64,000 nucleotides of DNA from Actinomycetes bacterium (lineage in GTDB: Bacteria > Actinomycetota > Humimicrobiia > Humimicrobiales > Humimicrobiaceae): assembly GCA_022396035.1 (NCBI GenBank), contig JAIOXO010000003.1, positions 22,927-86,926 of the forward strand. The letters are read 5' to 3'. The first letter of the stretch is position 1. Every line of letters starts with the position of its first letter. Shown in pieces: positions 11,493 to 16,614 of this stretch. The translations under genes and the position numbers were made by a program. The notes beneath the pieces were generated by a model. The model searched no databases and was not told the origin of the DNA. It saw nothing but the letters and a program-made list of their open reading frames with translations.

Positions 11493-14400
11493 CTATTTTT
11501 TAGCCTTGTTTTCAGAGTAAAGCCTGGCCTGGTACATAAAGGCTTCCAGCCTGGTTTCGGTAGTGCCCTGTTCCAGGCCGTCAAATGAAAGGTTAAGCCA
11601 GGGTACCTTGTATTTTTCCCTTATCCTTTTGGAAGTAGCAGTAACTATGGTTCCAGGCATGCAGGTAAAAGGCATCACATTTATGATGCCGTCATAACCC
11701 TGTTCAATCCAGTTTACCGATTTACCCACGCTCAAGGCCGCTTCCCCGAACCATTTAATAATATAGGGCTCGGCAGCGTCCCAGGTATGGTAAATATCAT
11801 GATCATCGGTACCCCTTACAAAGCCCTCCACCGGCCGGGCCAGTTTTTTAAGGTAAGAGGCTATTATCCGGTTATTTGCCCGGTTAAGCATATAAAATCG
11901 TATGGTCTTAACATAATCGCCCACCAGCGAAGATAAGCCTCCATTGGTCCTGCCTACATTGGCGTTAAGGCCCAGCGACCCCAGAATCTTGTACTTAAGG
12001 TCAGCCTGCTTGACCGAATTGTCCAGCCTGCTGGTGGCAGTGGTATGGCTGGGCCATTCAGAAATAGTGGGTATATCCACCTCTCCTCCCAGCTGTTCCA
12101 CCTTATCTATAATTTCATTATTGCTGTAGGGATGGTTTCTTACATAGATCTCTCCCACTATCCCGATTAAGGGCTTATGCACTTTATCCACCTCTACCGC
12201 TTCATACTCTTTTCTAGCTTCATATAATACATCTACCAATTTATTAAACAGCGCTTTATGCTCTTCCTGTTCCAGCAGCATTATAATCTGCTGCAGGTAA
12301 CGGTCATATATGGCCGATGCCTGGCCGGCATTCTTTTCATATGGCCTTATCTTTCTGGCCATCTTGTCCAGGTTATCCATGGTAAATATCCCCTGCATGG
12401 CCCGGCCCAGAAGCCTTAACCCCCGCACATTATCCATATCGTATTCCTCATAGAACCGGGAGCTTTCCGGGGCCCCGGGAGATACTATGGGCACTCCCTT
12501 ATAACCCTGCTCTGAAATTATTATCCTCTGCAGCTGGTTGTACTGGCCGAATCTGCAGGGCCCGTAGGTTAAGGGCATAAGGAACGCGCATTTATCCGGA
12601 TCATTGTATTTTAAAGTTTTAAGTATATCCCCGGTAGTGATGATAAAGGGGTAGCACTCCTTGCCCAGGGTATGCCTTCTGCCCAGCTCCAGGGTTTCAT
12701 CATCAGATATCATTACCTCTGCCTTTATACCCGAGCTTTTAAAAGCTGCTTTTATGGCAAAGGAACCATCGCTCATATAGGGAACATATATGGTACGGGC
12801 TTCATTCTGCTTAAACACCACCGGAGCCTGCTCCTGCTCCTGCTTTCTGACATGGTGAAGTTTGCGGTAATTCTTTAAAGAATCAATAAAGGCCTCGCAC
12901 CTGGTAACCACTCCCGCCCCTCCGGTATGCTCATCTATCTCGATTTTCAAGAAGGGCTTATCCATTTCCCTTTCAAAATACTGCAGTATGAAAGAGTCGG
13001 GTCCACAGCCAAAATTAGTCAAATAAGCGGGGTAAAGCCTTTCATCTTCCTTTATAAGCTTGGCCGCACTCATTATCCGGTCCCCGAACTCCCAGTAAAG
13101 GTTGGGCCACTGCCCGGACAGGTCCACGGTTTCCAGCGGCAAAAAGTCCAGAGGTATGACCTTTATTCCGCAATCCCTGAGCTTGTTGGGTATATCCATG
13201 GAAATGGAGCGGTCACAGCTGTTATAGGATCTGGCAGTTACCACAATAGCCGGCTCATCTTCAGCCAGCTCATCCAGCACCTCGCTGCCCTTCTGCCTTA
13301 ATTTTTTATAAAAATCGTTCTGGGCCTGATAAGCTATATCCACAGCCCTGCTTATAGTTGCTCTGCCTGCGCCCAGTTTTGATCCCAGCTGCTTAAGCTG
13401 CCTGGACTTGGCATAACCTTCAAAACTGAAATTAATTATGGGGTCTAAAATCTCCGCCTGGTCCAGATCGATAGCTGCCTTGGCCACACAGGGTATGCCC
13501 TGTACAAAAGGACAGGGGTAGCTGCCGGTCCGGTCTCCCTTTATGGCATGCTCTTTGGCCGGCATATCCCTTATGGTAGGCAAAAACAGGTAATCAACCC
13601 CCTTATCCATAAGATTATGCACATGGCCCAGCATTGCTTTCATGGGAAAACAGGTCTCCGCTATAACCGATGACAGGCCTTCTGAAATGATCTGTTTATT
13701 GGTTTTATCAGAAAGTACCACCTGTAGACCGAGGCTATCAAAGAAAGCACTCCAGAAGGGATAGAATTCATATGTCAGCATGGTAAAGGGTATGCCCACC
13801 TTCTTTGCCCCTTTATGTTCTTTGGGCTCATAGGTGCTTAATAGTATATCTTCCCGGTCCTGGAAATAATCGGGCAGGCCGCTTTTGGCCTGGTTGGGCT
13901 GCTCGTACTTTTCACACCTGCCGCCATAGTAAAGGGGTTTTTCTCCTTCAATGGATACCACCTTTATATCGCAATGGTTGGCGCAGCCCTTGCACTCAAA
14001 AGATTTCTGTTTGTAGCTTACCTCAGAAATCCGGTCAAATCCCCTGAAGTTGGTGCTGGCCGGAGCATTTTCCATGGCGGCTATAGCCGTACCTATGGCT
14101 CCGGTTACCTCATGATGGGGAGGCACTATTATCTTGGTGCCCAGGTATTTCTCAAAAGCCGCTACCACTGCATGGTTAAAAGCTACCGCTCCCTGGAAAA
14201 ATATCCTGTTTCCTATTTTTTTCCTGGCCACTACCCGGTTTATGTAATTCATTACTATAGAATAAGCCAGCCCGGCCAGGATATTATCCACCCTGGCCCC
14301 TTTCTGGTAATGGGAATAGACATTGGTTTCCATAAACACGGTACATCTTTCACCCAGATCCAGGGGGTTTTTTGCCTTAAGGGCCAAGGGAGCAAACTCC

Positions 14401-15758
14401 TCTATGGCCATATCAAATCGCTCCGACTGTTCTTCCAGAAAAGAACCGGTGCCGGCAGCGCAGACCTTGTTCATTTCAAAATCTACCACCACTCCGTTTT
14501 CCAGAGATATGTACTTGGAATCCTGTCCCCCGATCTCAAAAATGGTATCCACGCTGCTGTCAATAGCTGCTGCAGCCGTGGCCTGGGCAGTGATTTCATT
14601 TATTACTATATCCGAGCCCACAAAATCACCGATAAGGTATCTTCCCGATCCGGTGGTTCCGGCTCCCTTTACCCTGATTTTATCTCCAATTTTATCCCCT
14701 ATAATGGAAATACCTTTTCTAACCGCCTCAATGGGCCTTCCCGCAGTTCTCAGGTAGCACTTGGCTATAAGGTTTTTATTGCTGTCTATAGCCACCACAT
14801 TAGTGCTGATAGACCCTACATCTATGCCTATATAGGCATCAACCTTATCCTCCCCGAACTCATACTCCTGTTCCGAATAGGAAGGAAGCTCTGATTCTTC
14901 CAGAGACAGGGGCTCAAAAGTGTCCCTTTCATATTTTAACCCGGCAATATACTGTTCCAATGCCTGCAGGGTCTCTTCTCCTACTTTCTTTCTGGCAGAA
15001 GCTGCTGAAAGGGCCGAACCTATGGCTCCCATGGATTCATTATGCCGGGGTACGGTAATTGGTAAATCCAGTACATCGCCAAAGGCTTTAACCATGGCCT
15101 GGTTATTGGAAACTCCCCCGCAGAAAATCACCGGGGGCTTGAATTTTTTGCCCTTGACTATACCTGATCTGAAACTTCTGGCCATGGCATAGCAGAGGCC
15201 CAGCATAATATCCTCATCCCTGGCCGCTTCCTGCTGCAGGTGTATCATATCCGACTTGGCAAATACGCTGCACCTTCCGGCTATGGTCTCCGGGCTCTCG
15301 GACTGCAATGCCACCCGGGCAAATTCTTCAATACCTAAGCCAAATCTTGAGGCCTGCTGGTCCAGAAAAGACCCGGTGCCAGCCGCACACAACTCATTCA
15401 TGGCATAATCCCCGATAGCCAGATCAATATATTTGGAATCCTGTCCACCTATGTCAACAACTGTAGAAGCCTCAGGCATAAACTGCCTGCAGGCATTCAT
15501 CAATGCTTCAATCTCGTTTATAAACTGTGCCTTTAGTGCCAGGCTTACCCCTTTGCCTCCCGAACCGGTAAAGGCCAAACCCGAGATATCCTGGTCTGCA
15601 TATTTTTCCAGCAGCAGGGATAGATCTTTTTGTATAATTTGTAAGGGTTCGCCGTGATGGCGGGTATATTCCAGGACATCAACCACTTCCAAATTGTTAT
15701 CTACAACAGCGCGGTTTACGCTTACTGAACCAATGTCATAACCGATATATAATTCCAT
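11493..15758 (-). CDS. Large fusion protein: two tandem BadF/BadG/BcrA/BcrD-type ATPase (CoA-enzyme activase, HgdC-like) modules plus a C-terminal 2-hydroxyacyl-CoA dehydratase component-like (HgdB/DUF2229-like) region
   Basis: 1421 aa. Two repeats of the GYDIGS...GGQDSK...CAAGTGSF activase signature occupy residues 1-260 and 300-570. A Cys cluster follows (CKGCANHC...GGRC). The remainder resembles dehydratase D-components. Confidence 0.7.
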   Translation of the reverse strand: MELYIGYDIGSVSVNRAVVDNNLEVVDVLEYTRHHGEPLQIIQKDLSLLLEKYADQDISGLAFTGSGGKGVSLALKAQFINEIEALMNACRQFMPEASTVVDIGGQDSKYIDLAIGDYAMNELCAAGTGSFLDQQASRFGLGIEEFARVALQSESPETIAGRCSVFAKSDMIHLQQEAARDEDIMLGLCYAMARSFRSGIVKGKKFKPPVIFCGGVSNNQAMVKAFGDVLDLPITVPRHNESMGAIGSALSAASARKKVGEETLQALEQYIAGLKYERDTFEPLSLEESELPSYSEQEYEFGEDKVDAYIGIDVGSISTNVVAIDSNKNLIAKCYLRTAGRPIEAVRKGISIIGDKIGDKIRVKGAGTTGSGRYLIGDFVGSDIVINEITAQATAAAAIDSSVDTIFEIGGQDSKYISLENGVVVDFEMNKVCAAGTGSFLEEQSERFDMAIEEFAPLALKAKNPLDLGERCTVFMETNVYSHYQKGARVDNILAGLAYSIVMNYINRVVARKKIGNRIFFQGAVAFNHAVVAAFEKYLGTKIIVPPHHEVTGAIGTAIAAMENAPASTNFRGFDRISEVSYKQKSFECKGCANHCDIKVVSIEGEKPLYYGGRCEKYEQPNQAKSGLPDYFQDREDILLSTYEPKEHKGAKKVGIPFTMLTYEFYPFWSAFFDSLGLQVVLSDKTNKQIISEGLSSVIAETCFPMKAMLGHVHNLMDKGVDYLFLPTIRDMPAKEHAIKGDRTGSYPCPFVQGIPCVAKAAIDLDQAEILDPIINFSFEGYAKSRQLKQLGSKLGAGRATISRAVDIAYQAQNDFYKKLRQKGSEVLDELAEDEPAIVVTARSYNSCDRSISMDIPNKLRDCGIKVIPLDFLPLETVDLSGQWPNLYWEFGDRIMSAAKLIKEDERLYPAYLTNFGCGPDSFILQYFEREMDKPFLKIEIDEHTGGAGVVTRCEAFIDSLKNYRKLHHVRKQEQEQAPVVFKQNEARTIYVPYMSDGSFAIKAAFKSSGIKAEVMISDDETLELGRRHTLGKECYPFIITTGDILKTLKYNDPDKCAFLMPLTYGPCRFGQYNQLQRIIISEQGYKGVPIVSPGAPESSRFYEEYDMDNVRGLRLLGRAMQGIFTMDNLDKMARKIRPYEKNAGQASAIYDRYLQQIIMLLEQEEHKALFNKLVDVLYEARKEYEAVEVDKVHKPLIGIVGEIYVRNHPYSNNEIIDKVEQLGGEVDIPTISEWPSHTTATSRLDNSVKQADLKYKILGSLGLNANVGRTNGGLSSLVGDYVKTIRFYMLNRANNRIIASYLKKLARPVEGFVRGTDDHDIYHTWDAAEPYIIKWFGEAALSVGKSVNWIEQGYDGIINVMPFTCMPGTIVTATSKRIREKYKVPWLNLSFDGLEQGTTETRLEAFMYQARLYSENKAKK

Positions 15759-16377
15759 GTCTGCCTTTTTTATATGTTTATTACAGATTTTGATTATGTA
15801 ATGCTAACAACATTAAAAATAAACGTCAATGAATTGAAATTGTTGGCTTTAGAAAAGATAATCAGGAAAGAACAGGCCTGTATAAGGGGAGCAAAACAGA
15901 ACCTGTTTTTGGTCAGAAACCAATATCACAATACAGCTTCAGAAGCCAAACCTGCAGCCAGTGCTTCCAAGCCAAAACTGTTTTAACCTGCTCTTTACCC
16001 CTCTTCCTTTAACCACCATGTTTACAACTTCTCTGGTTCTTTATACATAAAAAAGATAGTTCTCTCTATAATGTAGATAGGCCTTCTATCAAGCTGTCCA
16101 TATAAGTTGAAAACGGCTTATGCCCTTCTTCGGTAATTAAAAATGCATTCCCTATTCTCAATACCTTTAGAATATCAACCCCATGTGCAAACCATACCCC
16201 ACCCCATTTTCTCCCCTTATATGCCATTTTATGGCTTCATATTTCGCCTCCTTCCAAACAACATCAAATAGTTTCCAAAAATTTACCAATTTCCCTCTTC
16301 CACCTTCACAGATTTCTGTTATTATATTAAACACAGAAACGCAACCCGTATTTACATAAATAGGACCAGAAACCACT

Positions 16378-16614
16378 ATGCCATTAATGCCAGAAATAGA
16401 AGCCGTTAAGAATAATACCGACTCCACGATCCTGGTATACTTCAATAACGGAATCATAAAAATTTTTGACTTAAAGCCATTACTGGATAACACACAGCAC
16501 CCCACTCTTACAGAAATAAAACTCAATCCCGAAGGAACAGTCCTAAATGGCAACACAGCTATAAGCGACTACGACCTCTGGGCCAAAAGCAAATTCTACG
16601 GATGGAGTAAATAA
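16378..16614 (+). CDS. DUF2442-family small protein
   Basis: 78 aa. Pattern IEAVK...LVYFNNG..KIFDLKPLL...L.....F..V.......L.W matches DUF2442. Its stop abuts the ATG of the next gene. Confidence 0.5.
   Translation: MPLMPEIEAVKNNTDSTILVYFNNGIIKIFDLKPLLDNTQHPTLTEIKLNPEGTVLNGNTAISDYDLWAKSKFYGWSK

Follow-up and report, generated by a model that had tools for sequence, protein, structure and literature searches.

The locus examined here lies on the minus strand of the window, the whole stretch of 64,000 nucleotides that was analysed, and encodes a single chain of 1421 amino acids in which two activase-type ATPase modules are joined to a dehydratase-like half. The question raised is what such a fusion reduces. 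In the original prediction the protein was taken for an enzyme whose architecture had no assigned substrate. The architecture was found to be that of PlsA/PlsR and Ger, a family with an experimentally assigned function, and the protein aligned with PlsA over the full length with retention of all the putative ligand Cys residues. The gene product is thus probably a member of the PlsA/Ger family, by which anaerobes convert the ester lipids of membranes into ether lipids, and would act as a self-contained iron-sulfur reductase that is oxygen-sensitive and driven by ATP. PlsA/Ger is the lipid-specific branch of the benzoyl-CoA reductase (BCR)/2-hydroxyacyl-CoA dehydratase superfamily.

Domain organization of the protein

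The open reading frame is a real gene under strong purifying selection, as judged from a dN/dS of 0.06 against an orthologue of 85% identity. The product is a well-conserved single-chain ATP-driven iron-sulfur reductase, in which no transmembrane segment was found. Its domains are arranged in the order Act1-Act2-Cys linker-Red1-Red2 (Table 1), the same order as in PlsA/PlsR and Ger (PMC13159169, PMC12838417, PMC8788747).

Table 1. Features of the ether-lipid synthase-like gene and its upstream region (positions in the window)
Feature	Position	Strand	Basis or remark
Ether-lipid synthase-like gene	11493-15758	minus	intact ATG-start ORF, 1421 aa
Act1, first ASKHA/BcrAD_BadFG ATPase module, about aa 1-258, putative cluster ligands C124 and C163	14985..15758	minus	Pfam and NCBIfam
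Act2, second activase module, about aa 305-565, putative cluster ligands C433 and C472	14064..14846	minus	best Pfam stretch 310-561
Cys-rich linker, about aa 582-620, C589-x2-C592-x3-C596 ... C615	13899..14015	minus	four conserved Cys
Red1, first reductase/dehydratase-like domain, about aa 640-965 (DUF2229), invariant C703, C749, C918	12864..13841	minus	Pfam
Red2, second reductase/dehydratase-like domain, about aa 985-1421 (PlsR-equivalent), invariant C1035, C1068, C1366	11496..12806	minus	BLASTP against PlsR
Conserved 5' leader and promoter region	15761..15838	minus	84.6% nt identity to the DNA immediately 5' of the L013 orthologue
Rest of the divergent intergenic region, AT-rich	15839..16614		not conserved in relatives; not part of the system

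The domain mapping with HMMs that had been proposed for this protein identified two modules of BcrAD_BadFG (PF01869)/TIGR00241 (E 1e-73 and 6e-91; Pfam and NCBIfam), 38% identical to each other (E 9e-57), and both carry the predicted CAAGTGSF signature, as NELC124AAGTGSF in Act1 and NKVC433AAGTGSF in Act2. A further putative ligand Cys is located 39 residues past each motif Cys, C163 in Act1 and C472 in Act2, and in both modules the two Cys columns are matched by Cys at the corresponding positions of HadI (4EHT). Among 62 homologues C124 and C163 show no or almost no variation, and the PlsA references also have Cys at these positions. The fold of Act1 matched those of MbdQ, HadI and HgdC with target-normalised TM-scores of 0.84-0.91, and the sequence of Act2 matched 4EHT, 1HUX and 9GAI_D in PDB (E about 1e-32). 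With these matches to HadI, HgdC and MbdQ and with two Cys per module, both are ASKHA ATPases of the BCR/HAD type. The two modules may represent the intramolecular equivalent of the head-to-head homodimer of HgdC/HadI, for which the support is the pTM of 0.78 of the model of the N-terminal part.

The Cys-rich linker that had been noticed between the two halves is indeed present (C589-K-G-C592-A-N-H-C596 ... G-G-R-C615), and was modelled as three short beta strands in the N-terminal model. Its four Cys are invariant in the 62 homologues and are kept in both E. faecalis PlsA and Clostridium PlsA. The linker probably forms a further metal site, which may hold Fe-S or Zn.

The proposed similarity of the C-terminal half to dehydratase/reductase subunits was borne out by Pfam matches, DUF2229 (PF09989) at residues 653-872 of Red1 (E 1.5e-63) and a weak one of HGD-D at residues 1352-1408 of Red2, and by the fold, which matched catalytic subunits of the BCR/HAD/DCCP type only. 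Since PDB sequence searches with this half gave no match, even with a profile of 62 sequences, the kinship to catalytic subunits rests on fold comparison. Both domains have the HgdA/B-BcrB/C fold with one three-Cys site each. Red1, with the fold of BzdN/HadC/DCCP, can be aligned with the last third of Clostridium PlsA, and Red2 carries a long helical insertion, the helices of which are seen in the model. No significant similarity between Red1 and Red2 was detected by BLASTP; their relatedness is judged from the fold and from motifs like ETCFP and KECYP.

Relationship to PlsA and Ger

The single-chain PlsA of E. faecalis (EF1327) and the PlsA-PlsR pair of C. perfringens (CPE1195-CPE1194) were reportedly described as the plasmalogen synthase by Jackson et al. 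in 2021. PlsA reference loci were retrieved by the published cloning primers. The E. faecalis-type reference has an ORF of 4248 bp, matching the published one (PMC12838417), and a divergent TetR regulator, as reported for EF1326 (PMC9702350), and the E. faecalis and Clostridium references are 47% identical to each other, consistent with published figures. On these grounds the reference loci are credible.

The window protein is collinear with the E. faecalis-type PlsA over the full length (27% identity over 1439 columns, E 4e-152). Identity to Clostridium PlsA was 29% over 992 columns (E 8e-126), and residues 974-1413 matched Clostridium PlsR by BLASTP at 24% over 451 columns (E 6e-26). The 14 candidate ligand Cys, namely the pair of each activase module, the four of the linker, and three each of Red1 and Red2, are all common to the window protein, E. 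faecalis PlsA, Clostridium PlsA plus PlsR, and nine homologues. Across the 62 sequences only C163 departs from full invariance, being retained in at least 90%. The window protein and both PlsA proteins gave an identical Pfam pattern of two BcrAD_BadFG and one DUF2229, the BBD core described for Ger/PlsA (PMC13159169). PlsA is nearly equal in length (1415 versus 1421 aa) with the same domain order, and is likewise a soluble protein without transmembrane segment, for which partner genes are not needed; expression of plsA, or plsA-plsR, in recombinant E. coli led to plasmalogens (PMC12838417). Ger is also similar by its published description, with the BBD core followed by weak matches of DUF2229/HGD-D in a single polypeptide that stands alone and is found in anaerobes. 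When expressed in E. coli, Ger of T. maritima (Tmari_0479/AGL49404) and D. alkenivorans (SHJ90043) gave rise to 1-alkyl glycerol ethers, and did so only under anoxia (PMC13159169).

The window protein differs from PlsA in the Act2 motif (CAAGTGSF versus CSSGCGSF), in an insertion within the helical region of Red2, in the lack of the TetR regulator that is found with E. faecalis PlsA, and in the host, which is an uncultured lineage of Actinomycetota. In addition, its subgroup conserves C189, C848 and C954, all of which are absent in PlsA; these Cys hint at some functional divergence.

The family is large, with 960 clusters of 50% identity at E<=1e-30, and more than 150 of these are nearer to the window protein than PlsA (the top 150 score 327 bits or more, PlsA 221 and 194). 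Since so many clusters outscore PlsA, the window protein belongs to a subgroup that is distinct and distant from PlsA and includes no characterised member among those found. According to the MAG labels, its named relatives are Humimicrobiaceae, Brocadiia/Planctomycetota, Aerophobetes, WOR-3 and Bacteroidales. Look-up of the clusters of 20 family representatives, one of them picked on a thermophile-like amino-acid composition, gave names of uncultured MAGs only (Brocadiia, Planctomycetota, Aerophobetes and Bacteroidales). The subgroup is a large and uncharacterised one within the PlsA/Ger family.

Organization of the gene neighbourhood

The gene had been described as standing alone, but the same-strand genes tmk-holB-PSP1 follow after 46 nt and no terminator-like site was found between its stop codon and tmk, so the gene is unlikely to form a transcription unit by itself. 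The nearest terminator-like site on the minus strand is located inside the coding sequence (11690-11671). Its neighbours are tmk, holB, PSP1 and argS. In agreement with the original prediction, neither a CoA-transferase/ligase nor separate activase and dehydratase genes, as in operons of the hgdCAB/hadIBC type, were detected at the locus or in five homologue contexts. These five contexts included no conserved lipid gene or partner subunit, no lipid-synthesis gene is adjacent, and no substrate-activating enzyme (CoA ligase or transferase) or transporter is conserved adjacent in the contexts examined. Distant homologues likewise have no conserved neighbours. The partnerless state had been considered unusual, but is expected for the PlsA/Ger family, because PlsA/PlsR or Ger convert sn-1 acyl esters into ether lipids in E. 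coli as the sole introduced genes. A B12-binding radical SAM enzyme of the TIGR04190 family is encoded 18 kb from the gene.

Predicted reaction and substrate

Beyond the domain anatomy, Cys conservation, fold, full-length homology to PlsA and absence of partner genes described above, we infer cluster types, electron path, lipid substrate and product for the window protein as follows. Act1 and Act2 would fold back on each other and share a single [4Fe-4S] cluster liganded by C124/C163 and C433/C472. By analogy with the superfamily, reduced ferredoxin or flavodoxin would load this cluster, and ATP hydrolysis would drive a low-potential electron onward, possibly across the invariant four-Cys site of the linker, to the pseudo-heterodimer of Red1 and Red2, whose Fe-S clusters would each be held by three Cys as in HadB/HadC. 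By homology, the sn-1 acyl ester carbonyl of a membrane glycerophospholipid would then be reduced via a ketyl-type intermediate, which could either be dehydrated to a 1-alk-1'-enyl (vinyl) ether, the outcome for PlsA, or be reduced further to a saturated alkyl ether, the outcome for Ger.

In other systems of the superfamily, HgdAB plus HgdC, HadBC plus HadI, BcrABCD, BzdNOPQ and MbdONPQ, the subunits are separate, whereas in the window protein everything is fused into one chain. In contrast to the dehydratases and class I benzoyl-CoA reductases, the window protein has the additional four-Cys linker and a catalytic half unrecognisable by sequence against PDB, and its gene has no CoA-ester-forming enzymes nearby. 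The substrate of the PlsA/Ger family is a lipid ester, while that of dehydratases and benzoyl-CoA reductases is a CoA thioester.

The same ATP-driven Fe-S machinery might serve a non-lipid substrate (another ester, a thioester or an aromatic compound) in a subgroup that has diverged in function, and the identity to PlsA of just 27-29%, the more than 150 closer clusters that separate the subgroup from PlsA, its own conserved Cys, and the housekeeping rather than lipid genes in the neighbourhood would all be in line with this, as would the view that function within the PlsA/Ger family is not readable from the sequence (PMC13274423, PMC11868695). This is nevertheless rather unlikely, because all four domains and 14 of 14 ligand Cys are kept over the full length, the lack of a conserved adjacent CoA ligase/transferase or transporter suits a ubiquitous endogenous substrate such as a membrane lipid, and no other function for this domain architecture is reported in the literature found.

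A DCCP fused to its reductase, which would reduce acetylene-like small molecules at an [8Fe-9S] cluster, is highly improbable. DCCP/DCCP-R of C. hydrogenoformans (6ENO, 7YYL) gave the best Foldseek match of the C-terminal half, and DCCP is also driven by a reductase of the ASKHA-ATPase type, but the identity is 13-15% and the seven-Cys double-cubane motif CX19CX18-19CX29CX166-170CX32-34CX32C (PMC7317905) is absent, including its first half. Equally, a mere activase serving a dehydratase encoded elsewhere, as suggested by the source annotations of homologues ("acyl-CoA dehydratase activase" or "CoA activase") and by the TIGR00241 matches, is scarcely credible, since the name covers only the N-terminal 40%, the other about 850 aa make up two conserved domains that resemble catalytic subunits and have a Cys triad each, and with PlsA these parts are enough for the reaction to proceed in E. 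coli (PMC12838417).

As an ether-lipid synthase of the PlsA/Ger family, the window protein could form either a vinyl ether, the product of PlsA, or a saturated alkyl ether, the product of Ger; PlsA and Ger are not separable by sequence and have no validated signature (PMC13274423, PMC11868695). The published rule of "one B versus two B" for PlsA versus Ger was discarded, as E. faecalis and Clostridium PlsA also show two PF01869 stretches. With respect to the published screening cut-off of E <= 1e-30 and >30% identity to a validated query (PMC13274423), the E-value is easily passed, while the 27-29% identity refers to PlsA and the published protein queries are Ger (with Mss). One tentative and doubtful idea is that the subgroup represents a Ger-type alkyl-ether synthase of subsurface Actinomycetota, which together with the TIGR04190 enzyme could yield ether-bound, possibly membrane-spanning, branched-GDGT-like lipids. 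Humimicrobiia have recently been proposed as branched GDGT producers via ElbD rather than Ger (PMC11868695), and a Ger route in this group, if true, would alter the ElbD-based picture of branched GDGT production. The substrate of the subgroup might alternatively be another kind of ester.

The finding mainly corrects an outdated reading, in that a fusion of two activases with a dehydratase-like part is an anaerobic ether-lipid synthase. The substrate of this architecture was assigned in 2021-2022 (PlsA/PlsR in 2021 and Ger in 2022), and yet databases keep the label "acyl-CoA dehydratase activase". An uncultured anaerobic lineage of Actinomycetota (Humimicrobiaceae-like) is therefore predicted to be able to make plasmalogens or alkyl ether lipids, which bears on the question of which organisms supply anoxic sediments with ether lipids and branched-GDGT biomarkers. 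The window protein, far from all characterised members, should be a useful test case for the determinants of vinyl versus saturated ethers.

The upstream region

The upstream gap is 856 nt in length (15759-16614), rather than the 620 nt of non-coding DNA initially given, and ends at a divergently transcribed GGDEF gene; the corresponding gaps of relatives are only about 160-190 nt. At 15829-15801, a consensus promoter scan picked out TTGACG-17-TAGCAT as promoter-like. A leader RNA or riboswitch was considered and dropped, as no Rfam match was obtained at the gathering threshold or at E<=1. A 129-aa ORF within the gap gave no Pfam match. The long upstream stretch is a lineage-specific leftover and not a feature of the system; it includes, at about 16075-16161, the remnant of a decayed M24 peptidase gene as detected by tblastx.

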